From an archaeon (GTDB taxonomy: Archaea > B1Sed10-29 > JAVZDC01), in NCBI GenBank assembly GCA_038874115.1, contig JAVZDC010000002.1, forward strand, positions 110,531 through 174,530: a DNA stretch of 64,000 bases. Direction: 5' to 3'. Of the stretch, positions 35,803 through 52,657 are shown piece after piece (position 1 is the stretch's first letter; every line of letters begins with the position of its first letter). The translations under genes were made by a program, and so were the position numbers. The notes below the pieces were generated by a model. That model was not told the origin of the DNA. It did not search any database and saw nothing but the letters and a program-made list of their open reading frames with translations.

Positions 35803-35866
35803 AAATATTAATAAATAGACGTATTTTAAATATTTGGAGGTGGATTTATTGCCATCTGATCGTGGC

Positions 35867-36301
35867 ATGTCTGCTTTGGATGCTTTAAATATGCAGGTTC
35901 AAACCTTAAATTCAAAGGTAGAAGTAGTAGCTCAAAGAATGAAAGTTATCGAGAAAAATGAACAGATAATTGGAAAAACTTTAATATCTCATAATAAAAC
36001 TTTGAAAGAATTGGAAGACGGGCTAGCTGCTTTAAAGGCAGAGAAGAAAGAAGAATTTCAGCAACAATTCGCTGCTGCTTTGGAAGAATTAAAAGAAAAG
36101 ATTGCTTCTTTTGAAGAAGATTTAAAAAGCTTAAAAAGTCAAGTCGAATATGCTCGTTTAGGAGTCGATGCTTTAAAATCTGATTTATCCAAATTGGAAT
36201 ATGCGTTAGAAGCCATAAACCCTGTTTTATACGTTACTATAGATCAAATTGGAGAATTAATAGAACAAAAGATCGAAGAAGCTTTATCTAAAAAGAAATA
36301 A
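35867..36301 (+). CDS. hypothetical coiled-coil protein
   Basis: ~145 aa of heptad-like Leu/Glu/Lys repeats. Start ambiguous (TTG 35849 after GGAGG, or ATG 35867). Confidence 0.55.
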   Translation: MSALDALNMQVQTLNSKVEVVAQRMKVIEKNEQIIGKTLISHNKTLKELEDGLAALKAEKKEEFQQQFAAALEELKEKIASFEEDLKSLKSQVEYARLGVDALKSDLSKLEYALEAINPVLYVTIDQIGELIEQKIEEALSKKK

Positions 36302-37750
36302 CTATTCACTCAAGAAAGGTCTAATCTTAAATCTGTATGGTTTTGAATTCTTTTCTTTTGCAGCCGCTTCGTTTTCAGTAATAAATTGTAAAATCATTGT
36401 TGAGTTTTGCATAATTTCTTGTGCTATATCGGATTCATGTGGAGTTCCGATGTGTACTCCAACTCCAACTTTTTGACAATCAAAAATACTTTTGAGAATT
36501 TCTTTCTCAATATTTTTTTGAATTTCCGGGGAGACTATCGGCTTTTCGATAAATACACTTGCTTTTAATGTATAGCTCTTGTCCACGACATAATAGAAAT
36601 AAAGTGTTTTTAAAAGGGATAAAAATACAAGTGGCAGCAATTCTTCCTGTTTTTCTAAAAATTCAACTCTGATCGCATTTCCTCCTGTTAAATATTTTGG
36701 TAAAATTTCAGAAATATTCATCTTTCCTTTGAAAATATCCGGGTATGCTTGCTCCAACGTAGACAATATCCTTAAAGCTTGGTAATATTGATTCTTAGTT
36801 GTAGCATCGAAAGCAAGATTAGTCTTTATATCCTCTATTGAACTTATCCCACCTTTTATCTTATTTAAAGCTTGATCAATCATTTCCCATGTCTTTTTCA
36901 CGCTTTCTGAATTCAATCCTAAAAATTCCTTCAAAGTTTCATTTGATATTAAGTTTAGGTCTACTCCAATTCTTTCAAGTGAAATGTTTTTTAAAGGCAA
37001 TCCAACAGGGCTTAAATCAGGGTAGTTCTCAAAATCAAACTTCGGGTTTGGTAGATTCATTGAAGCATAATCTTTTCCTTTATCGAAAAATATCGCCATT
37101 TTTCCACTTAATACGCAATTTTCGATTAAAACATGGAACATCTTTTTTATATCTTTTTGGCTTCCTATTACCACACAAAGCATAAATGAGTTTATCTCTT
37201 CCATGGCCTTTTCTCCAGTAATTTTTCTTCCAATTATCACCTTTGTTGGTTTAACTTCCTCAATTATCCTTTCTTTTTTGGAAACAAGAGCAAAGAATAG
37301 CGCAGGGTCCACAAACAATCTTTTAACCTCTTCTTCTTTTGCATATTTCAATTCCACTAAGTCGATTTTATAAAGTTTTGAAAGTCTGAGAAGATCTTTT
37401 GAAGAAGTTTCACATACATTTATCGATTTTTCTATCGCATCGTTTAATGCACTCATGTTGTATTCCACGTAAACAGGTCCAGAATTTATGATGAAGTATT
37501 TTGTTAAGCTTAAAGGTTCTTTTTTTTCAATTATTTGTGCGTAACCTACAATATTTTCTAAAGCACGAGCAAGAGAACCAACAGCTACGAATACCTTATT
37601 TACTTGCACCAATACTCCTTTAATTTCCTCCCCTTCTTTTTCATAAATACATATTAAAAGAATCCGGTCTGGGTTTTCGAAAATTTTAGTTTCGTATCCT
37701 TGCCAAAAACCTGAAAAGATTTCATTCCAAGGCCCATAAGCAGCTTCCAT
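36302..37750 (-). CDS. hypothetical protein (482 aa)
   Basis: Long uninterrupted ORF in AT-rich DNA; no Walker or other diagnostic motif found. Confidence 0.6.
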   Translation of the reverse strand: MEAAYGPWNEIFSGFWQGYETKIFENPDRILLICIYEKEGEEIKGVLVQVNKVFVAVGSLARALENIVGYAQIIEKKEPLSLTKYFIINSGPVYVEYNMSALNDAIEKSINVCETSSKDLLRLSKLYKIDLVELKYAKEEEVKRLFVDPALFFALVSKKERIIEEVKPTKVIIGRKITGEKAMEEINSFMLCVVIGSQKDIKKMFHVLIENCVLSGKMAIFFDKGKDYASMNLPNPKFDFENYPDLSPVGLPLKNISLERIGVDLNLISNETLKEFLGLNSESVKKTWEMIDQALNKIKGGISSIEDIKTNLAFDATTKNQYYQALRILSTLEQAYPDIFKGKMNISEILPKYLTGGNAIRVEFLEKQEELLPLVFLSLLKTLYFYYVVDKSYTLKASVFIEKPIVSPEIQKNIEKEILKSIFDCQKVGVGVHIGTPHESDIAQEIMQNSTMILQFITENEAAAKEKNSKPYRFKIRPFLSE

Positions 37751-37798: not shown

Positions 37799-38386
37799 AT
37801 GCCTACCATGGATCCAAAAATGCAGGAAATTATCGACATTCTAAAAAACATGCTTCAGACTGGAGCATCGGATGAAGAAATATCGAATATTCTCCAATCT
37901 GCCGGGATTCCAAAAGAAGATGCAGACTTTTTAATATCTGAGGCAAAAAAATCTTTAGAATCAGAAAAAGCTGCTGCAAAAGCTGCTGAAGAAAAAGCTC
38001 CAACACAGGAAGCACCAACTCCACCTCCTGCGGCTGAAGAGGTAGAGGAAGGAGCAGAAGCTGAGGAAACCGAGGTTGAAGAAGCACCTGAAGGTCTTGG
38101 CGAGATTTTAGAAGAACAACAAAGCATTTTAGAAGAAATATTGTCTAAATTGGACGAACAGAATAAAGATATTTCCGAGTTAAAAACAATGATTACTGAG
38201 ATTAAAGAAAAACAAGCATTTTTAGAACAAAAGATAGAAGAAATAAGTATTCCAGCAGGAGATATACTTCAACTAAAAGAATTTGTTCTTCAGATGAAAC
38301 CTATGATTTCAAACGTAAAGGAATTAAATGAAAAACTTTTAGATATAAACCGAGAAGTATTGATGTGGTTAAAGAGTAAAAAATAA
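37799..38386 (+). CDS. hypothetical acidic coiled-coil protein
   Basis: 195 aa; Pro/Ala/Glu-rich acidic linker (APTQEAPTPPPAAEEVEEGAEAEETEVEEAPE) followed by a coiled-coil segment. Confidence 0.6.
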   Translation: MPTMDPKMQEIIDILKNMLQTGASDEEISNILQSAGIPKEDADFLISEAKKSLESEKAAAKAAEEKAPTQEAPTPPPAAEEVEEGAEAEETEVEEAPEGLGEILEEQQSILEEILSKLDEQNKDISELKTMITEIKEKQAFLEQKIEEISIPAGDILQLKEFVLQMKPMISNVKELNEKLLDINREVLMWLKSKK

Positions 38387-38387
38387 C

Positions 38388-38612
38388 TTATTTCTGAAAT
38401 ATTTTCATAATTTGAGTTAGAATGCTTTTGCTTTTCTTTCCTTTTTTAAAAAGTTTTAAAAACGGAGGTAGTATAGCTTCAATTTCTTTAGATTTACCTT
38501 TCTTATCTTCTTTACTTATGCTTTCAAATAAAATCCCTTCTGCTTCTCCTGGAATTGGAATTTCTTCTTTTGGTGGCTCAGAATAAATTATGATATGTTT
38601 CTTTTTTCCCAT
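38388..38612 (-). CDS. small protein with cationic amphipathic C-terminus (paralogue family member, no TM)
   Basis: 74 aa; HIIIYSEPPKEEIPIP core and tail ILPPFLKLFKKGKKSKSILTQIMKIFQK; related to the three upstream paralogues. Confidence 0.5.
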   Translation of the reverse strand: MGKKKHIIIYSEPPKEEIPIPGEAEGILFESISKEDKKGKSKEIEAILPPFLKLFKKGKKSKSILTQIMKIFQK

Positions 38613-38618
38613 GAAAAC

Positions 38619-38945
38619 TCACTTAAATAAGCTTTTAAATACTTTTCCAAAAGACTTTGATGCTTTAACCCACCAAGGCGGTTCTGCCTCTTCTTCAGGT
38701 TTGTATTTTAAACTTATTTTTTCAGGCATTACGTATGGCGCGGTTCTTTTGCTTTTAATGTAGATGGGATTTAACATTTCTTGTTTTGATTCTTTTTCTT
38801 CTTTTTTCTTAGAAATTAGACTAAATAACAATAAGATTATACTTAGTCCAAAAAGTAGATAAGATAATAACAAGTATTTTGCAATATACAAAAATAATGC
38901 AATTGTCATTAAAATTAATGCGTGATCAGCGTCCATATCAATCAA
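38619..38945 (-). CDS. small membrane protein, paralogue family with cationic amphipathic C-terminal tail
   Basis: 108 aa; two N-terminal TM helices, Lys/Glu linker, NPIYIKSKRTAPYVMPEK core, tail SKSFGKVFKSLFK. Confidence 0.6.
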   Translation of the reverse strand: MIDMDADHALILMTIALFLYIAKYLLLSYLLFGLSIILLLFSLISKKKEEKESKQEMLNPIYIKSKRTAPYVMPEKISLKYKPEEEAEPPWWVKASKSFGKVFKSLFK

Positions 38946-39279
38946 ATATTTTTTTAAAGAGTTTTATTATCGAACCACTCACTTTACCTAAAGACTCACC
39001 AGCCAACATGAAGGTTGAGCCGTGCTTTGGCCATTTTGTAATAATCTCTATCTTTCCTTTTTTCGGGTATAAATACGGAGGCTCTCCTATGTCTTCATAT
39101 ATCACTGGATGTAAAATCGTCTCCTCATCCTCTTTCTCCTTTTTTTCTGTTTTTTTATATTGTTTTTTAGGCCAAACTGCTATCAAAACGCTTAAAAATA
39201 ATAAAAATGCTGCGATGTAAACTTGTAACCAAAAAGCTATTATGAGCGCAACTATGAGTAATAAAAGAATTCTATCCAT
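38938..39279 (-). CDS. small membrane protein, paralogue family with cationic amphipathic C-terminal tail
   Basis: 113 aa; two TM helices, HPVIYEDIGEPPYLYPKK core, tail LGKVSGSIIKLFKKIFD. Confidence 0.6.
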   Translation of the reverse strand: MDRILLLLIVALIIAFWLQVYIAAFLLFLSVLIAVWPKKQYKKTEKKEKEDEETILHPVIYEDIGEPPYLYPKKGKIEIITKWPKHGSTFMLAGESLGKVSGSIIKLFKKIFD

Positions 39280-39321
39280 ACCTAAATTTTATTTTTTAAA
39301 GCTTAATAATCTTTCGCGAGT

Positions 39322-39636
39322 TCATTTAAACAGGCTTTTTAATATTTTTCCTAAATTCTTTCCAAGTTTATCAGCTTTAAGGGATAAGCCAGTAGGCCCA
39401 GGTTTTCCAACCTCAATCTCCAATTTTTCAGGATATATGCTTTTCGGCCCAACGTATTCTCTTTGTACAATTATTGGCTGAACTTTCACTTTTTCTGTAT
39501 GTTTTTTACTTTTGGATTGTTTTTTAAATTCTAAGAAAGCTACCCCAACTATCATAAGTATTACGGATAACCAAACTTGCTTTAGAAAAAAAGAGATGAT
39601 AGCACCAACGAAAGCAACAATACTAATTTTATTCAT
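39322..39636 (-). CDS. small membrane protein, paralogue family with cationic amphipathic C-terminal tail
   Basis: 104 aa; two TM helices, QPIIVQREYVGPKSIYPEK core, tail LGKNLGKILKSLFK. Confidence 0.6.
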   Translation of the reverse strand: MNKISIVAFVGAIISFFLKQVWLSVILMIVGVAFLEFKKQSKSKKHTEKVKVQPIIVQREYVGPKSIYPEKLEIEVGKPGPTGLSLKADKLGKNLGKILKSLFK

Positions 39637-39944
39637 CTATAGCCCCCAAGCATTCTTAATAATTCGTCATATCCTCCTTCTTCTGTTTGTTTTATTCCTT
39701 TTCTTTGAGCAAGTATGTAGATTATAGCTACTGCGATGATTATCGGAATAAACCAATTTTCTTTTAAATTGAGGAAATAAATGCTTGCTAAAGCTAACCA
39801 ACAAACCAAAGATATTGCAAAGCTTCTACTTATCAAAAGAATGAACAATGCACATGCGAACCCAAATACAGTTAGTTTAGCATTGATCAATATCGCAGAA
39901 AGCAATAATAAGATCAAGGTAGAATATAAATCAATCTCTGCCAT
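39633..39944 (-). CDS. hypothetical small polytopic membrane protein
   Basis: 103 aa, 3 TM helices; tightly packed with flanking genes on the same strand. Confidence 0.5.
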   Translation of the reverse strand: MAEIDLYSTLILLLLSAILINAKLTVFGFACALFILLISRSFAISLVCWLALASIYFLNLKENWFIPIIIAVAIIYILAQRKGIKQTEEGGYDELLRMLGGYR

Positions 39945-39964
39945 TTAAATCTTTCCCCCGCTTT

Positions 39965-40249
39965 TTATTTTTTTTCTTCTTTTTTCTCCGCTTTTTCACT
40001 CAAAGTTTCAGCCATTCCTTCTAAAAAGGCATAGCCGAAGAATAGTATTATTATCCAAATTATTAGCTCTGGATGCAGGTAAAACGTAAAATAACTTATT
40101 ATCGCAGCAAGGATTATTCCAATTTTTTTCGATCCAATAAAGTCCGATGCCCATTTGTATACGAATAAAAATAAAATAATTGTGAATACTATTCTTAAAT
40201 CATTCCAAATGTTACCCGCAACCCCAAACACAATTTCTTGCATCATCAT
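39965..40249 (-). CDS. hypothetical small membrane protein
   Basis: 94 aa, 2-3 TM helices, Lys/Glu-rich C-terminus. Confidence 0.5.
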   Translation of the reverse strand: MMMQEIVFGVAGNIWNDLRIVFTIILFLFVYKWASDFIGSKKIGIILAAIISYFTFYLHPELIIWIIILFFGYAFLEGMAETLSEKAEKKEEKK

Positions 40250-40280
40250 ACTTAATCCTTTCCATAATATATAAATTTTT

Positions 40281-40604
40281 TCAATATCTTTGTAGCATAA
40301 ACATTATTATTCCAGAAAAGCCCATCATAACGAGTAAATAAAAGGTGTAGGCTGGGACAAAAAGAAAATACAATTTTATTACAAAGATGTATATCAATAT
40401 TCCGCTAACGATATATGTTAAAATCCCTGGGCCCAAGAAATTCTTAACGAATGAATAAATTACAAATATGAAATATGCTATCATTAACCACTTAAATATT
40501 GGGAAAAGCTCTCCAAGAAGAAGAGGAAAGAGCATGATTGCTAAGAAAACAAGTAACAAGATAATCATGAACGGAGTGAAAAATAAAAATCCTTTTGTTT
40601 TCAA
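40281..40604 (-). CDS. hypothetical small polytopic membrane protein
   Basis: 107 aa, ~4 TM helices. Confidence 0.5.
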   Translation of the reverse strand: MKTKGFLFFTPFMIILLLVFLAIMLFPLLLGELFPIFKWLMIAYFIFVIYSFVKNFLGPGILTYIVSGILIYIFVIKLYFLFVPAYTFYLLVMMGFSGIIMFMLQRY

Positions 40605-40610
40605 AATTGT

Positions 40611-40973
40611 TCACCTCATCCTAGCCCTAGCTCTCATCATCGTATCTTCTGTTTCGATTCCCTCCATAGAAGGTTCTTTTCTCCAAGGTTTAACTATGGA
40701 TAGGTCGAATAAAACTTGTGTGAATCCAAATATAATGAATAAGTAAATGAACATCATCGGACCAAATATCTCAAAATGCTGGAATAGGAAGATATAAGCT
40801 AAAACCAAAGTAATGATTATTGTAACTGGCCCTCCACCAAACCTGTTTTTTACAAAACCAACAATAAACAGTAAAACCACGATTTTAAAAGCAAGAATAA
40901 GAAGGTCAAAATCAGATAAAACGTTCCCAAAAAGCTTTCCAATCAAAAATCCTTGAATATCTGGGAACCCCAT
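40611..40973 (-). CDS. hypothetical small membrane protein
   Basis: 120 aa, 3 TM helices, Arg-rich C-terminus (MMRARARMR); start 2 nt after the stop of the giant upstream gene. Confidence 0.5.
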   Translation of the reverse strand: MGFPDIQGFLIGKLFGNVLSDFDLLILAFKIVVLLFIVGFVKNRFGGGPVTIIITLVLAYIFLFQHFEIFGPMMFIYLFIIFGFTQVLFDLSIVKPWRKEPSMEGIETEDTMMRARARMR

Positions 40974-40974
40974 T

Positions 40975-43900
40975 TTAATCCTTGAAGTTACTTATTAAAG
41001 TTTCCAATTCTCCTGAATCTTTTGCGAATATCTTGTATCCTTGTGAATCAGACCAAATTATTCCGCTTTTAGGAATGTCTGCTGTACTGCCCCACTTATT
41101 TTTAAATATTGTTTGCGCATTTTGTTCGCACGTAGAGATACTTGTACAAATTGCCACAAATACACTTTTTATGTTGTCTGGGGGCGTAGTTCCAGATTTC
41201 CATAAGAAATTAACTTCTGCAGGAGATACTTTTTCAATCTTCGCAATTAAATTTATTATATTATTGTTAAGTTTCTCCTTTACATCTCGCGAGCATTCTC
41301 CGTTTCCTTGAACGCAGATTCCTTGAATTGTTGAGGATGTTAATGTAAGATAATTCTCCCCTATAGAGTCTTCATCAATGTATTTTAAAGATAGTGTTCC
41401 TCTAAGAGTTTTTTCTAAATTACTTATTAATTCCTCTAATTCCCCTTTATTTTTTCCAATGATGTATGTGTTCCATCCTTTTCTAAATATTATGTTAGCT
41501 TCGTACCTTCCAAGTTTATCAGATACTAGATGACATGGAGCTTTCTTATCTTCTCCTTCATTGATTATAGCTGATTCGTTGCATATCTTCACTATGATAG
41601 TAGGACCCAACTCGATTTCATTTTTTTGAGTTATTTCTTTTAAAGTTACATCCGTGTTCCATTGTGCTTTTAAAGCTTTTCCTAACTTCTGCAAAATACC
41701 GTCCTTTTCCGAGCCCCCTATTCCTTCAAAGTACACATGTACATAGATTGCTGGTGTTGTCGAAGAACTTAACGATTCGTTAAGTACAGGCCAAAATGCT
41801 TGTACTCCTCTCACATCATTTTCATTTTCATCCACAATTTCCAATCCTGAAAGTCTTCCTGTAGAATCAAACGAATTTATTTCAACGCAGGAATCAGTTA
41901 TTTTATTTATTTTAAGCTGATATTCCCCTGCCCCTTCAATTCTAGCCCCATTGTTTATTAATACACATTTTTCTTTTCCAGAGGTACAATAACCGCATGA
42001 GCTCTGAGATGCCATTTCACTTATTATCACAAACTCCGCTTTAGAATATATTTCTGTAAATATTCTTTGAATATCTTGCGGTGTCGCGCCTTTTAAAGCC
42101 ACAGATTTGAAAGTCACTGGATTTGGACTTGAGAAATTGTCCGTTTTCTCTATAATAAATGCTAAAATTTGATCAAGAGAGCAAAAGTTTGTTTCACAGT
42201 CAAGAGGAAGACCATACTTCTGAATCTTTAAAGGTTTAAAGTATCCTTCAGAAATTTCTTCAACACTCGGAGCTTTTGCCATTATCGTAAGTCGAATCGT
42301 GTATGCGGAGCTTATTTTTTTATTTGACTTAAACTCCTTTGACGCGTTAATAGTAATGTTTATGTTATTTATTTCAGACGCGCCAGCTTCCAATGTTTTC
42401 CCAAAACTATATTTTATCTCCGCTCCTTGTGTGTATTGAGAAAATGAAGAAATATATCCACTTGGGGATGCTCCTCCAGTCCCTTCGACTACCACTTTGG
42501 TAATGTCCACTTCTACATCCGGGTCGCATTTTTTGAGAGTTAGAGATACGGGATTAGATTCGGTACAATTATTGTCACGTGGTGCTTCAAAGCTTGCTTC
42601 TTTTGTCATAACTTTAGATACTGAGATCAAACAAGAATGAGTTTCCCTTGTTGAAACGTCTAGATTGATTGATTTGGTTGTTGGAATTTCTAGACAAGGA
42701 CTTGCTACTTTTTTTATCTGGCCTTCCTTTAAATTATCTCCTGAAAGATTTATTTCTATTTTTGTTCCTGGGTATGCTCGTACTTGGTCATCAAAATAAA
42801 TCTCTATCCGATCTCTCTTATATTTGTAATTATTCGAATATTCTGAACTTTTAATTTGAATCGTTCTTCCATCCATTGTAATTTTTCCTTCTACATGGTA
42901 TTGTTTTGGATTTATAGGGGTATTCAAACCCTCTTTATATACTTTTATCGAAAAGTTAGTAGTTAAATCAGTTATTTTTTCAGGTTCTATTTCAATTCTT
43001 ATCGAAGCTTGTGCAGAATAGTTTATTTTGGTCTCAGCTACTTTGTTATTGTCGACAAAAGAATGAATTATCACTTGCGGAGGTATTTTAGCCTCTGCTT
43101 CAATCTTTACAATTATTTTTTCCCCAGTTCTCCAATCTTTTAAACTTAATTTAACATCTGTTTCATTCGCTTCGTATTCCGATTCATCAATAGTCGTAAG
43201 AGTATTGTTAAATTCTCTTAATACCATCGTGGTTAAAAATTCAGTAGTAATTCCAGATAAAGTATTGCTTGTAATACTTATCTCAGATGAACTTCTGGTT
43301 GAACCCTCGTTTATAAATGAAATTGTTAAGTTGTACTTAGGTTCATTTTCTTTAATCTCTACAGCGTTTGGAGAATAGGAGTTACCTTTATAGTTCACTT
43401 CTGCTTTAACCATTATTGTTTTGTCCTCCAAACCTGGCTCCAAATTGCTTTCTCGTGAGATATAAAAGAATATCTTTTTCGTCCCCTTTTTCGGATCGCT
43501 AACTTTCGCGTCTCCTTTATACCAAGTAGCAGAGTATTCCAAAGTTACATTATCGTTGAAACAAGTTGTTTTTACTCTTATAGGTACACGCACCTCTAAA
43601 GTAGTATTTCTATATTCATCTGGGTATCCGGATATTACATACGTTACGCCAGACACCTCTGTCGATTGTGTGAAATCAGTCGGCTCGACTCTTCCAAATT
43701 CTAAACATCCACTACGTTCCTTTATAGAAAATTCTGCTTTATCTACAGGTTCATTATTTAAATCTGGGAGGGAAACTAAGAAATGTAAAACATATTGTTC
43801 TCCTACTGAAAGACTTTCTTCAACATTCCCATTGGTTGCTCTATCAAAATAGACTGTAAAGTTTACGAATGCAAGCTTCAAATCTATTGAAACATCTTTA

Positions 43901-45684
43901 GTTAACATACCTACGTCAATAATCCCTCCATATATTTTTCCTGTTGAAGTATTTCTCCAAGTTCCTTTTACTATTATGTTCGAGTATTCTGGAACTTCAA
44001 ATTCTACGTACCCATCGATCGATGTTTTACCGCTTGTAAGTTGAACGAGTTCTTGTTCTTCCCCAACTCTTTTATCAAAAAGTACTACTTCTGCATTCGA
44101 AAGTACTTCTTCGCTCTCTTTTTCTAAAACAGTTATTCCTATGGTATATTTTTTCCTTTCAATTTCTATAACTTTCCTAACAAGGGACCCTCCTTTCACT
44201 GTAACTTGGACGCAACTACTTGAATCATTAAACCTTATTGCTTTTACACAATATTCTCCGATAGGCACACCATTAAACATAACTTTTCCATCCACCCCTG
44301 TTTTTTCAGGTATGGAAGGAATTCCAAGTAATTGAGACTCATCTTTTGAAAATAATTTTACTTCAGCATCCTTTACAGGTATTTCAGTTCCTTTAAAAAT
44401 TACAGTTACCTTTATGTCTCCATACTCTCCAGAAGTAAGTTCCGTCAAATATATTTTTTTACTTTCGCCCCCAACTATTTCGAATTCAGTATAATTGTAT
44501 CCTTGTAAAAATACGCTAGCTCGGTAAGTTTCTCTCTTTTTTAATGCAATCTTTGCGACACCAGTTTCATCAGATTCTGCCTTACTAATTATATCGTTTC
44601 CTTTGAATACTGTAATATATGCTCCTCCAACCGGAACTTCCCCACTTTGAGTTTGCTTAAAAGTATAGATGTAAGTTGGAGATGTTGTATTTACTTGAAT
44701 TAAAATCTCTAAAGTTCCGCCAGTTATGTTAGCAACCCAAGTTTTGTTTTCATCAATGTAACTGTCATAATTTGTATTATTTTCCCCTGCTTCAACTTTT
44801 ACTGAGAAGTTAGCATTCTTTGGAACTTTGAGGTTTGCAATTCCCAAATAACCTTGAGAATACCCTGTTGTCTCTGAAGAATAAGTGTAGTTAGTTAATG
44901 GATTTACAAGTTTTACCGTGACTCCAGCCAAAGGATTATTATTTTCATCAACAACTTTTACTTTGACTTTCACATATTCTTCTTTTATTTCTTTCCGATC
45001 TAGTTTGATGCAAACTCCAGAATCTATTTTATTTTTTATGTACTCTCCAGGCAGTAAATCAGTCTCATAGTTCAAAGTTTCAAATTTATAAGAATAATTT
45101 ATTACAAAATTACTCATTACACAAGTAGCATTTTCCTCACAAGAAAGAACGTCTTTTTCTTTAACCACTCTTTCTCCATCATAGGCGGAGTATTTAATTG
45201 AACTTATGCTTAATTCTGAAAAATCTGCTGTTTCAAAGCAAAGTTGTACTGATGTTCTTGAAAGCTCGCCTTGGCATTTTAAATATATTGGAATCTGGTA
45301 CGTATCTGATTCTACAGTTATCGTAGATTCGTAATTTAAACATCCTGTTTTTTCCACCTGAATAGAATATTCACCAGGTTCTGCTGAGAGTTCAACGATC
45401 CCATCAACAGTTTCTCCACTATATACTGTTTTCCCATTCAAATCCTTTAAAGTTATTGATGCGCCAGATATTCCTATTTTTGTAATGTTGTCTTTTACAA
45501 ATATGGAAAATTGTATTTCTTTTGGGGTAGGTGCTCCTCCTCCCCCTCCAGCCAGCATTAAATAAATTCCAACAAGTATTGCAACGAATATTCCAGCAAA
45601 AACAGGTAAAGAAGGTATTCCCTTTTTTTCCAAAGGATCTATAATTGAATAGATTGGAACACCTTTCGAATCTAAAAAATCCAA
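40975..45684 (-). CDS. giant (1569 aa) surface adhesin-like protein with prepilin-like N-terminal anchor and Ig-like/prealbumin-like beta-sandwich repeats
   Basis: N-terminus EKKGIPSLPVFAGIFVAILVGIYLML (basic, KG, hydrophobic helix) then Gly5 linker; many beta-rich repeats (e.g. VKVKVVDENNNPLAGVTVKLVNPLTNYTY); last long gene of the pilus-like operon. Confidence 0.8.
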   Translation of the reverse strand: MDFLDSKGVPIYSIIDPLEKKGIPSLPVFAGIFVAILVGIYLMLAGGGGGAPTPKEIQFSIFVKDNITKIGISGASITLKDLNGKTVYSGETVDGIVELSAEPGEYSIQVEKTGCLNYESTITVESDTYQIPIYLKCQGELSRTSVQLCFETADFSELSISSIKYSAYDGERVVKEKDVLSCEENATCVMSNFVINYSYKFETLNYETDLLPGEYIKNKIDSGVCIKLDRKEIKEEYVKVKVKVVDENNNPLAGVTVKLVNPLTNYTYSSETTGYSQGYLGIANLKVPKNANFSVKVEAGENNTNYDSYIDENKTWVANITGGTLEILIQVNTTSPTYIYTFKQTQSGEVPVGGAYITVFKGNDIISKAESDETGVAKIALKKRETYRASVFLQGYNYTEFEIVGGESKKIYLTELTSGEYGDIKVTVIFKGTEIPVKDAEVKLFSKDESQLLGIPSIPEKTGVDGKVMFNGVPIGEYCVKAIRFNDSSSCVQVTVKGGSLVRKVIEIERKKYTIGITVLEKESEEVLSNAEVVLFDKRVGEEQELVQLTSGKTSIDGYVEFEVPEYSNIIVKGTWRNTSTGKIYGGIIDVGMLTKDVSIDLKLAFVNFTVYFDRATNGNVEESLSVGEQYVLHFLVSLPDLNNEPVDKAEFSIKERSGCLEFGRVEPTDFTQSTEVSGVTYVISGYPDEYRNTTLEVRVPIRVKTTCFNDNVTLEYSATWYKGDAKVSDPKKGTKKIFFYISRESNLEPGLEDKTIMVKAEVNYKGNSYSPNAVEIKENEPKYNLTISFINEGSTRSSSEISITSNTLSGITTEFLTTMVLREFNNTLTTIDESEYEANETDVKLSLKDWRTGEKIIVKIEAEAKIPPQVIIHSFVDNNKVAETKINYSAQASIRIEIEPEKITDLTTNFSIKVYKEGLNTPINPKQYHVEGKITMDGRTIQIKSSEYSNNYKYKRDRIEIYFDDQVRAYPGTKIEINLSGDNLKEGQIKKVASPCLEIPTTKSINLDVSTRETHSCLISVSKVMTKEASFEAPRDNNCTESNPVSLTLKKCDPDVEVDITKVVVEGTGGASPSGYISSFSQYTQGAEIKYSFGKTLEAGASEINNINITINASKEFKSNKKISSAYTIRLTIMAKAPSVEEISEGYFKPLKIQKYGLPLDCETNFCSLDQILAFIIEKTDNFSSPNPVTFKSVALKGATPQDIQRIFTEIYSKAEFVIISEMASQSSCGYCTSGKEKCVLINNGARIEGAGEYQLKINKITDSCVEINSFDSTGRLSGLEIVDENENDVRGVQAFWPVLNESLSSSTTPAIYVHVYFEGIGGSEKDGILQKLGKALKAQWNTDVTLKEITQKNEIELGPTIIVKICNESAIINEGEDKKAPCHLVSDKLGRYEANIIFRKGWNTYIIGKNKGELEELISNLEKTLRGTLSLKYIDEDSIGENYLTLTSSTIQGICVQGNGECSRDVKEKLNNNIINLIAKIEKVSPAEVNFLWKSGTTPPDNIKSVFVAICTSISTCEQNAQTIFKNKWGSTADIPKSGIIWSDSQGYKIFAKDSGELETLISNFKD

Positions 45685-45797
45685 GAGATCAAACCATTTG
45701 TCCTCTATCGAATAATAAATTTCTTTTAAATTCGTAAGACCACCTTTATCATGTTCTATTTTCTAATGCCACCATAGTATATAAAATTTTTTCTTTT

Positions 45798-46601
45798 TTA
45801 GCAACTTGATGGTGTAATCGATATCGTGGTTGTTATGTATTCAATTGTTTGGTCTGGATTGGAATAACGGAATATTATTTTAGTTAATCCTTCTATTCCT
45901 TGGGAAATTCCAACTATTTCAACTCTTGATGCTTCGGCCTCTGCTTTCATTTGTCCGCAACTACCATCATTTTTAGCTGCAATGTATGATTTCTCCAATC
46001 TCTTACAAAGAGGAGCACTAGAAACCCAAGTTCTGCTTTCCGGCCCAATAAAGATCGTTAATTTATCTTTCTCATTATTTTTATTTTTAAAAGTAACTTT
46101 AAAAATGTCTTTCCCTTTAAATTTACTTCCATCTATTTCTATTTTAACCTTTCCTTCCGAGTCACAACTTAGTGTTATAGGTTTAATTTCACCTAAAGTC
46201 TTTGAAAGTTGGTCATAAAAATTAGCCGGATATTCTGGAGAATATTCTGTCGCACTTTCAACGCTAGACCCCATACCTTGATAGATTCCGTTTCCCCCTA
46301 AGGTTAAATCATTTTCTAACTTTCTTATAATCATGTATTTTAAATTCTCCGAGCTGCCATACTTGGAAAGGTCGAGCGTAAAATTAGAAGCTATCGCATT
46401 TTCAATTTGAGCGTAAATGTGGCTTTCAACAGTTGCTTTTATCATCTTTGCAGAATTACTTTGAAAAGAGTTTTCTTGGAAATTAATTAGACTTTTTGAT
46501 ACTCTTACATTATTCTCCACGACTACTACTGCTGTAAAACTTGCTATCAAAACCAGCAAGGTTCCAATCAAGGCACTAAAAAGAGAAAAACCTCTTCTCA
46601 T
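45798..46601 (-). CDS. prepilin-like protein (class III signal peptide), 267 aa
   Basis: N-terminus MRRGFSLFSALIGTLLVLIASFTAVVVV (basic, RG, hydrophobic helix), as in archaeal type IV pilin precursors. Confidence 0.6.
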   Translation of the reverse strand: MRRGFSLFSALIGTLLVLIASFTAVVVVENNVRVSKSLINFQENSFQSNSAKMIKATVESHIYAQIENAIASNFTLDLSKYGSSENLKYMIIRKLENDLTLGGNGIYQGMGSSVESATEYSPEYPANFYDQLSKTLGEIKPITLSCDSEGKVKIEIDGSKFKGKDIFKVTFKNKNNEKDKLTIFIGPESRTWVSSAPLCKRLEKSYIAAKNDGSCGQMKAEAEASRVEIVGISQGIEGLTKIIFRYSNPDQTIEYITTTISITPSSC

Positions 46602-46752: not shown

Positions 46753-47175
46753 CTAACATCCCTGTGGTAAAGTAGGTGTACCGCCTATGCCTACGACACA
46801 TTTATTAGTTCCACAAACAGCATAGACATCCACAGGTACATTTTTCTGCGGGGAGAATGTATTCTCATCGCAGTTTGCAATATTATTATTGATATTACTC
46901 GCGCATTCGAATTCTATATCTTTTCCCGCAGCTTCAACAAACTTTGAGGATCTAGCTGAATACGAGGTTCCAGTTTTTAATTTTACTGGAGTTGAACTTT
47001 TTTGAATATTGCAAGGTGAATTTGCTGCAGACTGAAGCAATGCTGCTACGGTTGTATCGAACTCTTGGCCAGGTACTGTTATTCCTCCAAGAATACTTAA
47101 TAAAATCGCTAAAATCATTACCGCAACTACCGCAGCAATCATAAGTTGGAACGTATCGAATGCTTGTCCTTTCAC
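46753..47175 (-). CDS. archaeal type IV pilin-like protein (class III signal peptide)
   Basis: N-terminus MKGQAFDTFQLMIAAVVAVMILAILLSILGG: KGQ motif then hydrophobic helix, matching the archaeal prepilin signal; Cys-containing C-terminal domain. Confidence 0.7.
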   Translation of the reverse strand: MKGQAFDTFQLMIAAVVAVMILAILLSILGGITVPGQEFDTTVAALLQSAANSPCNIQKSSTPVKLKTGTSYSARSSKFVEAAGKDIEFECASNINNNIANCDENTFSPQKNVPVDVYAVCGTNKCVVGIGGTPTLPQGC

Positions 47176-47443: not shown

Positions 47444-47842
47444 TTAAGAACAACTATCTGAGCAAAGATATATTGTACATCCTTGTTGTGAGTCGCACTT
47501 TGTAGATATTGGAATTTTCATATTGTATTTTGCAGTACAAAGGAATCCTTCACAATCTACTTTATTTCCGCACCTGTTCCTAATTCCTATAGATGTATCT
47601 GGGAAAAAATGTTGTATGCTTTTAGATGATATTGTTTCTCCTTTTTTTAGTTCAAAATCCCGAGATATGCATTGGGATGCTACTCTTACAGAATAAGCTT
47701 CCCCAACAATCTCTTTTAATAATGCTCCTGTTTCAAAAGGTTTTGGAGTAGAACTTATATATGCAAAGATTATTGCTGCTAAAGCGATAGCAAAAATTCC
47801 AGCAAGCATCATTTCAAAAATCGTAAAAGCTTGTCCTTTCAT
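47444..47842 (-). CDS. archaeal type IV pilin-like protein (class III signal peptide)
   Basis: N-terminus MKGQAFTIFEMMLAGIFAIALAAIIFAYI; paralogue of 46753..47175; overlaps the platform gene stop by 4 nt. Confidence 0.7.
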   Translation of the reverse strand: MKGQAFTIFEMMLAGIFAIALAAIIFAYISSTPKPFETGALLKEIVGEAYSVRVASQCISRDFELKKGETISSKSIQHFFPDTSIGIRNRCGNKVDCEGFLCTAKYNMKIPISTKCDSQQGCTIYLCSDSCS

Positions 47843-49881
47843 GCGATCCCTGTAATTAATAAAGAACTAAAGTACGTTGCGGCAAGGAAAAGAATGACAG
47901 ATATTGGTAAAGTCTTTGCAATGTTTATCTTTAAAGCAAGGTCGTTTTCCCCTTCCTCTATTTTACTTGTAAAATAGGTTAAAAGCAAAGTAATTTCAAC
48001 AACATAGATTCCAAGTAAAATTATGAAGAATTCAACACTTGGTAACTGCGAGACTTCAAACTTTCCAATACTAAAGAATCCAGGAATGTTTTTCATTTTG
48101 ATTCCAGTTTGTTGAGCAGACAAACCAGAAAGAGATTGAATTATTAATTTCTGCATGCTTCCAGTGATTCCAAGTACTAAAGGAGCAATTAGAAAAGCAA
48201 TCGATTTCATCATGGCAGTTATTTCTTCCAACATGTTTTTTATTTTTGTTTGTAATTTTCTCAAATCTTTTATTTGTAAAGAAAGAGATATAAGAGCTTT
48301 TGCTGCTTGTTGAACTCCTAAACTAGCAGCATCTAAAACAATCCTAAAACTGTTTTTTATAAAGTCTGAGTATACTTCTCTTAAAGATCCGTATGCAGGG
48401 TCAAAAAAAGCACTCTGAACAGTCATTCCCAAGTTTCTTATGTTTTCACTAGTTTTTGCAAAAACTTTTGCAATTTTTGTGTGTTTTAAAAAGTTAGCTG
48501 AATATTCCATCGCTTCTTCCAAAGGTCTATTTTCCCCAAGTCTTGAAGCAACAACATAGATCCCATCTTCAAATTCTCCTTCCATTGTCATTATTTCTAA
48601 CTGCAGTTTTCTTCTTTCGATAGAAATTCCGTAAAGATAGATTGAAACAAAAGCACTAAAACTTAAGAATACCCCTGCAATCCAACCAAAATGAACGTAT
48701 CCAGTCAAATCAGCATGAGTTTGTGAGTATTGCATAGCAAGGAATGGTTCCAAAATAAAGAAACAACAAAAGAAAATAGTAAATGCAACAATGGATGCAA
48801 TAAAGACAGCAGGTACTTCAGACTTACCTATCCTCATGTAACCTTTTTTTGGAAGTTTGGGAAGATTTTCCGGAATTTTTGGTGGCACGTATACAGGAGG
48901 TCTCATACTTAAAATGTTTTTAGCAAAGATCATCGTTCCAAAAGGAATCGCAGCAACATAAAGCCCAGTTATAAGCAAAGGATTGCTTAAAAAAGGCAAG
49001 TTTCCAATCATCGCTCCTATCGGTAAAAGAATTATAAGCATTAAAGGCAGTAGGACTCCAACATAGTAAAGGTAGATCGTTGGTTGTCTCATCTTTGTTA
49101 TGTACCCGTTCATTTCTTCAGAAAGGCCAGCTAAAACATCTTCTAAAGCCTTATCTAAAATTGCATGTCTCTTTCCTTCGTCTATTTCTATTATCGAAGA
49201 TCTTATTAACATCAAGGCATGTTTAAACTGTTCACTATAGTTTCCCCATTTATACGCTAAAGCATCTAACGCTTCCTCCATAGATCTATATATTCCAAAT
49301 TTTACATCCCAACTTAATTTCTTTAAATCTTCTGCAATCTTTCCCCTTCCATGCATTCCTGCAAACTCAACTGCCTTTTCCAAGTTTGGCGTTAGTTTCA
49401 TCGAAATTATAAGATAATTTACTATCTCGGGTATACTTAGCAAAGCTTCTATCTTTTGAGCTTTTGCTGCGTTTATTATATATCGGTTATAATAGTTTGC
49501 AAGAATGAAAGGAATTAATATTAAAACTGGAGCACACATCGTAAAAATAAACATGTCTAGCTCTTGGGTAATAAAAACCATGTATCCAAGAAAACCCAGG
49601 ATTGGCAAAACAAGTATTAAAGAGATTTGTGTTACAAAGATAGGAACAGCATTTACTTCCGCAGGAGTTAAAGGCCAACCTAAAAACTCTAGAGCAGAAG
49701 CAAATTCTTTATTTTTAAACTCATTTTTTGCTTTTACGTATTTTGCAGCCATTTTTGCCAATCTTATGTAAGAATTTTCTTTGATTTGTACTTTTGGTTT
49801 TTCTATAAGCTCTTTTGAAAATGCTTCTGCAAAACCTCCAAGCGTATTTTCTTCTTCAAACCTTCTTCTTCGCTCTCTCAA
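47839..49881 (-). CDS. type IV pilus / secretion membrane platform protein (FlaJ/TadC-like, two T2SS-F-type domains)
   Basis: 680 aa polytopic membrane protein with two cytoplasmic helical domains each followed by TM helices; immediately downstream of and overlapping the secretion ATPase gene. Confidence 0.7.
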   Translation of the reverse strand: MRERRRRFEEENTLGGFAEAFSKELIEKPKVQIKENSYIRLAKMAAKYVKAKNEFKNKEFASALEFLGWPLTPAEVNAVPIFVTQISLILVLPILGFLGYMVFITQELDMFIFTMCAPVLILIPFILANYYNRYIINAAKAQKIEALLSIPEIVNYLIISMKLTPNLEKAVEFAGMHGRGKIAEDLKKLSWDVKFGIYRSMEEALDALAYKWGNYSEQFKHALMLIRSSIIEIDEGKRHAILDKALEDVLAGLSEEMNGYITKMRQPTIYLYYVGVLLPLMLIILLPIGAMIGNLPFLSNPLLITGLYVAAIPFGTMIFAKNILSMRPPVYVPPKIPENLPKLPKKGYMRIGKSEVPAVFIASIVAFTIFFCCFFILEPFLAMQYSQTHADLTGYVHFGWIAGVFLSFSAFVSIYLYGISIERRKLQLEIMTMEGEFEDGIYVVASRLGENRPLEEAMEYSANFLKHTKIAKVFAKTSENIRNLGMTVQSAFFDPAYGSLREVYSDFIKNSFRIVLDAASLGVQQAAKALISLSLQIKDLRKLQTKIKNMLEEITAMMKSIAFLIAPLVLGITGSMQKLIIQSLSGLSAQQTGIKMKNIPGFFSIGKFEVSQLPSVEFFIILLGIYVVEITLLLTYFTSKIEEGENDLALKINIAKTLPISVILFLAATYFSSLLITGIA

Positions 49882-52144
49882 GAGCTTCCCTCCTAGCGAT
49901 AAGCGGTTTTACCTGGTTTTCTAAAAACCAGTCTTTCCATTCTTGAATTGCCATTTGATAATCAACCATTCCCAAATCTTCTCTCTGTCTTTCCAGTATT
50001 AAAAGCCAAGCATCATTAGCTGGAACAGTGTATTTCGCTTCCAATAATTCTGGTATTTGGTATTTATTCTTTTGGTCTACTGCAAATTGTTTTATTTCTG
50101 CCCTTGCGTTTATGTCTTCCCAGATTTGTTCAAAAGTTAGTCCTCTTCTTGCACTAATTCTTTTAAAAATCTCAGACTTTCTACAATTTTCTTCTAAAAC
50201 CTTAAAAGAATCTTTATCTACATTGTATTCTATAAGTTGCAAGAAACCATTTTCTTTTTCCGGATCTGAATACCAATGTTTTTCCACACTCGTTATTTCC
50301 ACAACTCTCCTATGTCTTTTCAAAGACCCCTTAAACCTTATTGGAGCACAAACTACACAAACGTCTGTTGCTTTGAAAGAAGTATTTGGAACTCCTAAAT
50401 CGTTTACGATTCTGTCCCATACTGAATATGCGGATTCTCCGTGGATAGTTCCCATAACTACGTTACCTACAGCACCAACTCTCATAGCTTCGTACAAAAC
50501 TAAAGCTTCTTTAGATCTAACTTCTCCAACTATCAATACTGAATCTCCAAGCCTTAAAGCAGTCCTTAATGCTTCTTCTGGCGGTACTTCAGCACTTGTT
50601 CTAGATACTGCTATTGCTGATTGCGTTTTTAATCTTTGAATGTTAAATCCAAGCCCTTTCATGAATTCGACTGGAAGTTCTAAAGTGTCTTCTAGAGTTA
50701 GAATTCTTAAACTTGGCAATATTTCCAACATTAAAGCTTGAAGAAGAGATGTTTTCCCTGCCCCTCTTGAACCAACAACAAGAGTGGATGCTTGCGCATC
50801 TATTAAATAAGATAATAAACCAGCTACTTTGCTATCTATCATTTTTACATCTATAAATTGTTGTAATGTCCACGGAGTTTCTTTATGCAATCTTAGTGCA
50901 AACGCAGTACCATCAGGGGATAAAGGTGGTCCAATAACTGCAATTCTTGTTTGTAAATCTCTTAAATCAAAATCCAAGACCGGATGGGCTTCATCAAAAG
51001 GTCTTCCAGAAAGGGCTCTAAACCTAGATACCAAAGTTTTTGCTTCTTCTTCAGTAAAAACAACGTTTGTTTGGCAAGAACCATATTCTCCATGCACAAC
51101 GTAGACAGGTTTGGTTCCAAGAGGAGCATCGATATAGACATCAGTTAACTTTCTATCAGAAAGCAACAATTCCAATATCCCGTAACCAACAGTATATCTG
51201 CAAACAATTCCAGCAATTTCCGAAGCTTCTTTTCCAGTAATTTTTATTCCATGTTTATTGGCCAAATCTATAATCGTTGTTTCATAAACTCCAAGCAAAT
51301 AGTTCCTTAGTTCTTCCGGATTAGCAAAATGTAATCCTTCAGGAGAATAAGTTGAAACAATATCTTTAGTCTTCGAAAGTAAAAAGTATTTTTCTGGAGG
51401 CAAGTTGTATTCTGGAGGGGCAATATAATAAAGATATTGAACTTTTGCTGGATGTTTGTATATATTTACAGTCGCATCTTTTACATAATATTGGTCCACT
51501 AATTCTATTTCTTCTGGAGTTGCGAAAAAAACTCTGGATGCAACAAAAGCAGGTTTTATTTGAGCTTCAAATAAACTATGATAAATAGTTCTTCCTGGCG
51601 GAATTCTCCCAAGCTTTTTTATAATTTCTTTTGTTTTTTGAATTAGAGTAGTTTTTTCAAAAGCAGCTAACATGAAATATAGTGTATTTAAGTATATGTC
51701 GCTACATTCTTTTTCTATTCCTTGAAGGCCGGCATTCCTTTCATTCTCTCTTTTCAAAGCTTCAACCAAAGTTAAATATGCTCGGAGAGGGTCTGTTTTT
51801 AAAAGATCTTGAGCAATGGAGACGACTAATGAATACCGTCCAGGAATTTCTCCTTCGCATTGAGGATGGCCAAGTCTTGAAGAATTCCACACTCCTTCCC
51901 TATAAAATAAGTTCCCCAATTCTCCGATTTCTTTAAGCATTTTTGTTTGTTCTTCAGAATATATTATTTCATAAACTTCAGCTAGAACAACCATGTCTGC
52001 ATTTGTTCTAGCCAACTTTTCTATAACTTCCCTCATGCATTGTGGAAAATCAGCAACAGAAGGGCCCCACTCGCTTCCTCTATAATCAATGATTAAATAC
52101 CTCTTTGTTCCTTCTGTTTTTATTGTGAAATCATGCGCAGCCAT
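49856..52144 (-). CDS. type II/IV secretion-system ATPase (FlaI/VirB11/PilB superfamily) with long N-terminal extension
   Basis: 762 aa; Walker A VVGSRGAGKTSLLQAL, downstream conserved Asp/Glu and His boxes typical of secretion ATPases. Confidence 0.85.
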   Translation of the reverse strand: MAAHDFTIKTEGTKRYLIIDYRGSEWGPSVADFPQCMREVIEKLARTNADMVVLAEVYEIIYSEEQTKMLKEIGELGNLFYREGVWNSSRLGHPQCEGEIPGRYSLVVSIAQDLLKTDPLRAYLTLVEALKRENERNAGLQGIEKECSDIYLNTLYFMLAAFEKTTLIQKTKEIIKKLGRIPPGRTIYHSLFEAQIKPAFVASRVFFATPEEIELVDQYYVKDATVNIYKHPAKVQYLYYIAPPEYNLPPEKYFLLSKTKDIVSTYSPEGLHFANPEELRNYLLGVYETTIIDLANKHGIKITGKEASEIAGIVCRYTVGYGILELLLSDRKLTDVYIDAPLGTKPVYVVHGEYGSCQTNVVFTEEEAKTLVSRFRALSGRPFDEAHPVLDFDLRDLQTRIAVIGPPLSPDGTAFALRLHKETPWTLQQFIDVKMIDSKVAGLLSYLIDAQASTLVVGSRGAGKTSLLQALMLEILPSLRILTLEDTLELPVEFMKGLGFNIQRLKTQSAIAVSRTSAEVPPEEALRTALRLGDSVLIVGEVRSKEALVLYEAMRVGAVGNVVMGTIHGESAYSVWDRIVNDLGVPNTSFKATDVCVVCAPIRFKGSLKRHRRVVEITSVEKHWYSDPEKENGFLQLIEYNVDKDSFKVLEENCRKSEIFKRISARRGLTFEQIWEDINARAEIKQFAVDQKNKYQIPELLEAKYTVPANDAWLLILERQREDLGMVDYQMAIQEWKDWFLENQVKPLIARREALERAKKKV

Positions 52145-52657
52145 TTTAACATTCCTCGTTCCGAATTCGTGAAAGCGACTTTTTTTACTTTTAAAATCTT
52201 GCTATTTTTTTCTATTTTTATAACTCTACTCTCTTTTATAAATCTTTATCCTCTTAAAGTCTTTGTGGCTAAAGGCGTCTCTTTTTTATTAACTCTTTTT
52301 GGTGTACCGCATGTTTTAATCTTCTCAAGCCCAGAGCCAAGCATTTTTGTAGATAATGTCGAAGCCCAAATAAAGGACTTATGTGTTGGACATATGGAAA
52401 TTGCGTTGATTTGTTCGATAATCTTAGCTTGTGATGATCGTTCTGTTAAATCTCGAGTTCTTGGTGCCTTTTGTTCTATTCCTTTTGTTTTTTTCTTAAA
52501 TCCTTTAAGAATCTCGGTCGTTTTGTTTTTTGGGCATTATTTCTCCTGGCCTTTTGCAGACTTTATTCATGATGTTCTTTTCAGGCTCACTCTTTTTATT
52601 GTAATTCTTATTTACTTTCTGATTTGGTATGTTTTATCCTGGAAGTTTAAGTTATAA
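52133..52657 (+). CDS. possible small polytopic membrane protein with Cys-Ser / Asn-x-x-Arg motifs (exosortase/archaeosortase-like?), or non-coding
   Basis: 174-aa ORF in the 550-bp divergent intergenic region; TM helices, EIALICSIILAC and FLNPLRISV. May be spurious (AT-rich DNA gives hydrophobic ORFs) or may start internally. Confidence 0.3.
   Translation: MRSHFNIPRSEFVKATFFTFKILLFFSIFITLLSFINLYPLKVFVAKGVSFLLTLFGVPHVLIFSSPEPSIFVDNVEAQIKDLCVGHMEIALICSIILACDDRSVKSRVLGAFCSIPFVFFLNPLRISVVLFFGHYFSWPFADFIHDVLFRLTLFIVILIYFLIWYVLSWKFKL

Follow-up and report, generated by a model that had tools for sequence, protein, structure and literature searches.

Four small genes near a giant surface protein gene encode an undescribed protein family of DPANN archaea

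Four consecutive small genes, here called A to D, encode an undescribed family of small proteins that is real, conserved, and, judging from its database relatives, specific to DPANN archaea. The genes lie on the minus strand of the window, the 64,000-nucleotide (nt) stretch of contig JAVZDC010000002.1 (positions 110,531 to 174,530) analyzed here. The window is an archaeal chromosome segment with a GC content of ~33%, and its genes include intron-containing tRNAs, split RNA polymerase subunits, EF-1alpha, EF-2, and aminoacyl-tRNA synthetases. We read the products of A to D as hairpin-anchored, cytoplasm-facing scaffold or docking subunits in the cell's own membrane, and we give this reading an even chance of being right. 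A first-pass annotation of the same DNA had singled out the four genes for their shared core and cationic C-terminal tails. It had also suggested that the tails might act on the membrane of a partner or host; this "antimicrobial-like effector" proposal is attractive but probably wrong, and it is corrected below.

The four genes and their family

All four open reading frames, and every peptide that the first-pass annotation quoted from them, were recovered at the following positions:

39322–39636, minus strand: gene A, 104 amino acids
39520–39630, minus strand: membrane hairpin of A
39409–39480, minus strand: core of A, QPIIVQREYVGPKSIYPEKLEIEV
39325–39390, minus strand: C-terminal amphipathic helix of A, residues 83 to 104
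38938–39279, minus strand: gene B, 113 amino acids
39172–39273, minus strand: membrane hairpin of B
39040–39111, minus strand: core of B, HPVIYEDIGEPPYLYPKKGKIEII
38941–38991, minus strand: amphipathic tail of B, LGKVSGSIIKLFKKIFD
38619–38936, minus strand: gene C, 105 amino acids from the ATG (an alternative TTG start at 38945 is possible)
38814–38921, minus strand: membrane hairpin of C
38700–38771, minus strand: core of C, NPIYIKSKRTAPYVMPEKISLKYK
38622–38660, minus strand: amphipathic tail of C, SKSFGKVFKSLFK
38388–38612, minus strand: gene D, 74 amino acids, without a membrane helix
38550–38597, minus strand: core of D, HIIIYSEPPKEEIPIP
38391–38462, minus strand: C-terminal part of D, basic and amphipathic, FLKLFKKGKKSKSILTQIMKIFQK

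Gene callers give the same four genes in public assemblies of near-identical strains, and the initial count of membrane helices (two each in A, B, and C, none in D) is correct for this genome. Among the strains compared (99.3 to 99.8% identity), B, C, D, and the HerA-like gene described below are identical. Seven substitutions, mostly nonsynonymous, are clustered in codons 73 to 83 of gene A (39388–39419); they hit the linker between core and tail and leave the core and tail of A unchanged.

Smith-Waterman alignment of the parts of A, B, and C that follow the membrane helices gave scores of 53 to 61, against 24 to 26 ± 5 for shuffled sequences. The pairwise z values were 6.4 to 7.4, and the real scores were attained by 0/500 shuffles. 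With similarity so far above chance, the three proteins are indeed paralogs with a common proline-bracketed core, as first supposed.

The claim that D is a fourth paralog stood only in part. Pairwise similarity of D to A, B, or C was not significant (z, −0.7 to 1.3), nor was the score of the family profile hidden Markov model (HMM) against D (≤10 bits), although this last test is too weak. Comparison of profiles, however, aligned seven D orthologs with the 120-sequence family at 80% probability (E value, 1.4e-5) over 17 columns. These columns are exactly the core motif, KH-I-V-I-Q-x-x-PP in D and P-I-I-V-E-x-x-x-P in the family, and the D orthologs have an invariant H..PP..P.P motif. In half of the eight other lineages (L011, L012, L014, and L016), D begins with a two-helix hairpin, followed by a linker and then the motif. 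In 5 of the 9 lineages read, including the window, L001, L006, and L013, it has neither signal peptide nor membrane helix, and the motif is kept. Because the core aligns profile to profile and the hairpin is present in four other lineages, D is best read as a fourth, more diverged member of the family that has lost its hairpin in the lineage of the window and in others.

A word-indexed search of 5.8 billion proteins returned only the window's own proteins and one distant relative; with the orthologs added, it returned 30 matches. When 1.84 billion cluster representatives were searched exhaustively with an HMMER profile, 103 of them matched at an E value of ≤1e-3. All but one of these (P0124) are 66 to 146 amino acids long, and the full-length members (94 to 146 amino acids) share the same architecture; a few fragments and one repetitive protein of 276 amino acids, probably spurious, are also among them. 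Where a source name is given, the matches are a "hypothetical protein" of a "Candidatus Micrarchaeota archaeon," "DPANN group archaeon," or "archaeon." The product of gene B is identical to database protein P0001, whose sole name is likewise "hypothetical protein."

The family splits into three ortholog groups: the A type (gene A; pattern V[QR]PIIVKRKYVGPESIYPEKM), the B type (gene B; pattern ILHPVIYEDVGEPPYLYP), and the C type (gene C; pattern LEPIVIESTRGAPYRIP), the last being the best conserved. It is thereby defined by ~100 sequence clusters, three ancient ortholog groups, and a fourth member, and it is typical of the small-membrane-protein "dark matter" of DPANN genomes. Scans of A to D and their neighbors against Pfam, NCBIfam, PADLOC, and PHROGs gave only subthreshold membrane-helix or coiled-coil noise, and PDB sequence searches with the family, D, and HerA-like profiles returned nothing significant. 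A viral contig collection, searched with the C-group motif [LM]EPIVIES (the full family alignment is too diverse for a pattern), yielded no relative. In the literature on DPANN and Micrarchaeota pili, HerA, and VirB4, we found no description of the family, nor is it described in comparative genomic studies of Micrarchaeota, membrane "dark matter," and the type IV pili of archaea (PMC4858521, PMC5898192, PMC6393860, PMC5498576).

Predicted topology, core, and tail helices

An AlphaFold2 model of A, built from the 120-sequence alignment, has a mean predicted local distance difference test (pLDDT) score of 82. It places membrane helices at residues 3 to 17 and 21 to 39 and a C-terminal helix at residues 83 to 103. 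Residues 40 to 82 are extended and without regular structure, with pLDDT values of 81 to 86 over the core. By the established positive-inside rule, Lys and Arg residues next to a membrane helix mark its cytoplasmic side. Averaged over 120 members, the 20-residue stretch that follows the second membrane helix has 3.9 Lys or Arg residues, compared with 0.5 at the hairpin center or loop and 0.08 at the N terminus. This concentration predicts a cytoplasmic C-terminal part; both termini, the core, and the tail would lie in the cytoplasm, with only a loop of ≤5 residues outside. Because D keeps the motif without a signal peptide or membrane helix, the partner of the motif should be cytoplasmic. This predicted cytoplasmic location is the main argument against a secreted or host-directed role.

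The proline-bracketed core is the best-conserved part of these proteins, with lower conservation in the tail and membrane helices. Indeed, nearly all invariant residues of the C group fall in the core (E57, P58, I59, I61, E62, S63, T64, R65, P68, Y69, I71, and P72); those outside it are a Gly-Tyr pair where the hairpin turns and a single tail Gly.

That the tails are cationic and amphipathic, as the first-pass annotation had noted, was confirmed by helical-moment analysis. At 100 degrees, the best 14-mers of A, B, and C have hydrophobic moments of 0.75, 0.67, and 0.70, respectively, attained by ≤0.4% of shuffles, and the last 12 residues of D have a moment of 0.67, attained by 0.5% of shuffles. 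The best periodicity of all four tails is 95 to 100 degrees, which is alpha-helical, and each helix has a net charge of +4. By the same calculation, magainin 2 scores 0.61 and the FtsA membrane anchor scores 0.62. Across the family (120 members), the mean maximum moment of the tails is 0.60, compared with 0.46 for shuffles, and 92% of the tails are net cationic. Many orthologs carry a Lys/Glu-rich extension after the amphipathic stretch or have a weakly cationic tail, and the Lys content of the proteome (8.6%) accounts for part of the high Lys content in the tails. No conserved cleavage motif was seen before the tails in the family sequences.

From these features, we propose that A to D are four anciently diverged paralogs that would act as small subunits in the cytoplasmic membrane. 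A tight N-terminal two-helix hairpin would anchor each protein, except D in the lineage of the window, where the hairpin appears to have been lost. The cytoplasmic chain would then consist of a Lys-rich membrane-proximal segment, the proline-bracketed core, a variable linker, and a basic, Gly/Ser-rich amphipathic C-terminal helix. The core, ~25 residues in a presumably extended conformation (P followed by three hydrophobic residues ... P..hydrophobic-P-x-K, then an alternating strand), is most likely a docking strand, pairing either with the other paralogs or with some partner in the cytoplasm. The tail helix, comparable to those of MinD and FtsA, most likely rests along the inner leaflet and gives each protein a second hold on the membrane, so that hairpin and tail together would pin the docking loop to the membrane surface at both ends. 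For D without a hairpin, the hydrophobic-plus-polybasic C terminus (e.g., FDWKTFLLGGLFLKGKKKEK) would be the only membrane attachment; its retention fits a lipid-binding role for the tails.

The likeness to the targeting helices of MinD and FtsA is one of functional class. A to D likewise end in a short, basic, amphipathic helix at the extreme C terminus, on the predicted cytoplasmic side. A tail that gives an otherwise soluble protein a reversible hold on the membrane would fit the D proteins of the window, L001, L006, and L013, which would attach by the tail only; in A, B, and C, with their two membrane helices, the tail would be a second anchor. A to D also lack an ATPase or actin-like domain and have no sequence relationship to either protein. 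Should the tail helices indeed bind lipid, the family would be an archaeal case of membrane proteins that carry an additional anchor in the plane of the membrane.

Gene order and alternative explanations

The genes around A to D that bear on their role are as follows:

39633–40973, minus strand: four small multi-pass membrane proteins of 120, 107, 94, and 103 amino acids, ≤31 nt apart
40975–45684, minus strand: giant surface protein, 1,569 amino acids as listed, with CarboxypepD_reg and SpaA-type Ig-like domains and a membrane anchor near the N terminus
45798–46601, 46753–47175, and 47444–47842, minus strand: three pilin-like proteins of 267, 140, and 132 amino acids, with class III signal-peptide-like N termini (RRGFSLF..., KGQAF...)
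47839–52144, minus strand: TadC/T2SSF-type platform protein (680 amino acids) and T2SSE/FlaI-type secretion ATPase (762 amino acids)
52133–52657, plus strand: archaeosortase/exosortase-like gene, 174 amino acids (PF09721; E value, 1e-9), divergent from the pilus ATPase
36302–37750, minus strand: 482-amino-acid cytoplasmic protein with a likely HerA/VirB4-like fold and a degenerate Walker A motif, transcribed as a unit of its own, two genes downstream from D
37799–38386 and 35834–36301, opposite strand: coiled-coil genes flanking the 482-amino-acid gene

Gene order was compared in ten lineages (the window, L001, L006, and L011 to L017). The order of giant gene, four small membrane protein genes, A, B, C, and D is kept in 9/10 of them. 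Upstream are the secretion ATPase and archaeosortase-like genes (where visible), then a pilin-like gene and the giant gene. After D come an opposite-strand coiled-coil gene, a gene for a protein of 480 to 500 amino acids, a second opposite-strand coiled-coil gene, and the genes for DNA polymerase B and an M24 peptidase. In the seven loci scanned with it, the family HMM found exactly three members per locus, always adjacent, and each of A, B, C, and D has a single, one-to-one ortholog per genome. Identity to the window is 44 to 54% for DNA polymerase B, about 30 to 45% for A to D, and 32 to 34% for the 482-amino-acid HerA-like protein. The four small multi-pass proteins, encoded directly upstream of A and identically ordered in all related loci inspected, have no family match in the Pfam and PHROG scans. 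In L016 (8221–14979), the array is split: A still accompanies the giant gene and the four small membrane genes, all on one strand, while B, C, and D (the last with a hairpin) are inverted 2.2 kb away, with radical S-adenosylmethionine and FtsJ genes in between.

The first-pass annotation had placed the four genes directly downstream of the pilus/adhesin operon. The location is right but understated. From the giant gene through D, the gaps in this nine-gene run are 1, 6, 31, 20, −4, 42, 1, and 6 nt; with none above 42 nt, the giant-protein operon appears to end with A to D. The start of A overlaps the stop of the upstream 103-amino-acid gene by 4 nt (ATGA), and such 4-nt overlaps are frequent among the orthologous genes of other loci. 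The stop of D lies 1 nt from that of the convergent gene. The retention of three or four ortholog groups in every genome, the 4-nt overlaps, and the operon shared with four small membrane proteins suggest a hetero-oligomer of fixed composition.

Thus, A to D and the four multi-pass proteins may form a hetero-oligomeric platform that serves the cotranscribed giant adhesin and the type IV pilus-like machine and perhaps tethers the HerA/VirB4-like protein. As a more ambitious and decidedly tentative proposal, these eight proteins and the degenerate HerA/VirB4-like protein would constitute an undescribed, DPANN-specific inner-membrane platform that links the giant surface adhesin to a type IV pilus-like motor. 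This platform would then be the core of the host-attachment apparatus of these ultra-small archaea, possibly one that also exchanges material, with the four paralogs as its "double-pinned," stoichiometric docking subunits. DPANN archaea need physical contact with their hosts, and the machinery of the contact site is annotated almost wholly as "hypothetical protein." Encoded in a pilus/giant-adhesin locus that is kept across deeply diverged genomes, A to D are concrete candidates for the membrane-proximal part of a contact apparatus and, if the platform model is true, good handles for locating the host-contact machine.

By analogy, A to D would work most like the small accessory subunits that act as scaffolds or tethers in filament and secretion machines (PilN-PilM, VirB3-VirB4, and FlaX/FlaH around FlaI). 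Like PilN and PilO of bacterial type IVa pili and FlaX and FlaH of the archaellum, they appear to be small membrane-anchored accessory proteins of a pilus-type operon. The N terminus of PilN docks PilM, and A to D carry a short, conserved peptide predicted to be cytoplasmic; the noncatalytic RecA-fold ring of FlaH parallels the degenerate HerA-like protein. However, PilN and PilO are single-pass proteins with a large external domain, whereas A to D would be almost wholly cytoplasmic and number four paralogs rather than one or two. No homology connects them.

Several observations count against cytoplasm-facing docking subunits that serve the pilus locus. AlphaFold2 renders the core as coil, with no folded domain, and the "docking strand" is our interpretation of it. 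The predicted topology derives from the positive-inside rule by itself. The tails of the C orthologs in L001 and L006 are weakly amphipathic or not cationic. The HerA-like gene belongs to a separate transcription unit, with an opposite-strand coiled-coil gene between it and D. In L016, the inverted B, C, and D lie away from A and the small membrane genes and have no adjacent HerA-like gene. Finally, because conserved order extends to housekeeping genes (DNA polymerase B and the M24 peptidase), neighborhood is weaker evidence here than usual.

The alternative that survives best, which we still regard as unlikely, holds that A to D are unrelated to the pilus. They would instead be membrane tethers for the HerA/VirB4-like protein and the two coiled-coil proteins in DNA handling, segregation, or division, similar to VirB3-VirB4 or CedA1/A2-CedB. 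VirB3, which binds VirB4, is itself a small hairpin protein of ~100 amino acids. A to D share with VirB3 and CedA1/CedA2 a length of ~100 amino acids, a membrane hairpin, and a gene location near a HerA/VirB4-type ATPase-fold protein. In 8/10 loci, this protein is encoded two genes downstream, with coiled-coil genes on either side and the DNA polymerase B gene beyond; the HerA-like gene is absent from the rearranged L016 and lies beyond the contig end in L017. (A GTDB genome scan with the HerA-like protein, which used narrow patterns, found two loci only.)

Against a tether of this kind, A to D are packed into the giant-protein operon, and the HerA-like gene forms a unit of its own beyond a convergent gene. 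In L016, A remains with the small membrane and giant genes, while B, C, and D have no HerA-like gene beside them. No match of A to D to VirB3 (PF05101), VirB2, or Ced families was found in Pfam at an E value of ≤1, in NCBIfam, or in PDB sequences. The hairpin of A to D is at the extreme N terminus, ahead of a long C-terminal part predicted to be cytoplasmic, and the locus belongs with those for type IV pili, not with those for conjugation. The HerA-like neighbor itself has no sequence-family match; its HerA/VirB4 assignment, from a model of moderate confidence, is likely. Its orthologs keep a Walker-B-like hhhhD[DE]xxxY motif, but the Walker A position is not conserved (VVIGSQKD, IVIGDSAQ, VVIGSKQD, VIFGEAAQ, and VIIGKEER). 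The protein is probably a noncatalytic member of the FtsK-HerA superfamily, and so degenerate a Walker A motif makes translocase activity unlikely.

Somewhat less probable is a variant in which the C-terminal helices pack against one another in a cytoplasmic A:B:C:D bundle and do not meet lipid, their amphipathicity marking a protein-protein interface. Small residues at positions i and i+4 (LGKNLGK, LGKVSGS, FGKVFKS) would suit helix packing, and the presence of all ortholog groups in every genome suggests a hetero-oligomer. A charge of +4 per helix, however, would cause repulsion within a bundle, and the C terminus of the hairpin-less D is a hydrophobic-plus-polybasic stretch of the sort typical of lipid binding.

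We consider it improbable that A to D are holin-like, channel-forming oligomers that open a cytoplasmic bridge to the host, for example, or release cell contents. Class II holins have ~100 amino acids, two membrane helices, both ends inside, and a charged C terminus. A, B, and C resemble them in each respect, as far as predicted, and occur as several paralogs beside four more small membrane proteins. DPANN archaea have also been reported to form cytoplasmic connections with their hosts (PMC5498576). Yet no PHROG or Pfam holin match was found, no lysin or viral genes lie nearby, and the viral contigs yielded no relative by the C-group motif. A to D sit in a conserved chromosomal housekeeping region, their proline-rich, predicted cytoplasmic core is more conserved than their membrane helices, and D apparently works without membrane helices in several lineages.

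Least probable of all, and very doubtful in our view, is the first-pass suggestion that the tails are exposed or released cationic peptides, secreted or processed, that act on a host or partner membrane in an antimicrobial-like way. Magainin and PGLa are Gly/Lys-rich, as are the tails of A to D, and the last 13 to 22 residues of A to D resemble both peptides in composition and moment (0.67 to 0.75 with a net charge of +4, compared with 0.61 for magainin 2). A to D also share an operon with a giant surface adhesin, and the source organism belongs to the DPANN archaea, which are known to live attached to hosts (PMC5498576, PMC6393860). Unlike those peptides, however, the tails are joined to a membrane protein and, from the Lys/Arg distribution, predicted to be cytoplasmic; D has no export signal; and there is neither a leader or cleavage motif in the family nor an exporter, protease, or immunity gene nearby, nor a relative among the viral contigs searched with the C-group motif. 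Toxins are patchily distributed and change fast, whereas A to D show strict one-to-one orthology and a fixed gene order (9/10 lineages). Conservation is higher in the core than in the tail, ortholog tails have Lys/Glu-rich extensions or weak charge, and part of the tail Lys reflects a proteome with 8.6% Lys. Taken together, charge pattern, signal-less D, orthology, and tail variability make a secreted or extracellular membrane-attacking role unlikely.

Other features of the locus

The 103-amino-acid multi-pass protein (39633–39944, minus strand) ends in the motif Y-(D/S)-(E/P)-E-L-x-R/K-x-L-G-G in all loci (e.g., ..YDELLRMLGGYR and ..YYSPELMRLLGGG). In the giant gene, the codons of the conserved protein N terminus (..EIYYSIEDKWFDLLDFLDSKGVPIYSIIDPLEKKGIPSLPV and a membrane helix after it) lie in frame at 45685–45750 (minus strand), ahead of the first ATG, GTG, or TTG, and the orthologs begin MADLGRITEFYYKIEDKWFD...; this implies a noncanonical start codon or a sequence error. 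The conserved cytoplasmic N terminus of the giant protein (IPVY..VDPLEK.GIPS) was considered as a fifth copy of the core and rejected, as the family HMM aligns only with the membrane helix.

The three pilin-like proteins end in or next to a Cys residue (..TPSSC, ..LPQGC, and ..CSDSCS), and orthologs of the large one end in ..KTGSC or ..TPISC; this Cys may be a modification or cross-linking site. A type IV pilin identity was rejected for the small proteins themselves, whose N termini (MNKISIV, MDRILLL, and MDADHAL) lack a class III signal site and lead into two helices. The 680-amino-acid platform protein scores 20.0 bits with PF00482, under the Pfam gathering cutoff of 25.2 bits. A second T2SSF/TadC-type gene at the window edge (63276–63944, minus strand; PF00482; E value, 4.5e-12) suggests a second type IV pilus-like system.

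The archaeosortase-like gene is also present in L011, L015, and L017, and Cys, Arg, and His residues in the aligned region might be a catalytic triad. Among the proteins of the pilus locus, none stood out as a substrate carrying a sorting signal at its C terminus; the family motif was rejected as such a signal because membrane helices, basic cluster, and motif come in the opposite order to that of an archaeosortase signal.

Two loci carry insertions of toxin-antitoxin type: a ribbon-helix-helix (RHH) and ParE pair after the HerA-like gene in L001 (13084–13569), and, in L013 (7593–7769), an RHH gene that separates A from the fourth small membrane gene. Elsewhere in the window, two long tRNA genes on the minus strand, at 16593–16696 (104 nt) and 22277–22368 (92 nt), probably contain introns; ARAGORN misses the first and gives the second a 4-base anticodon.

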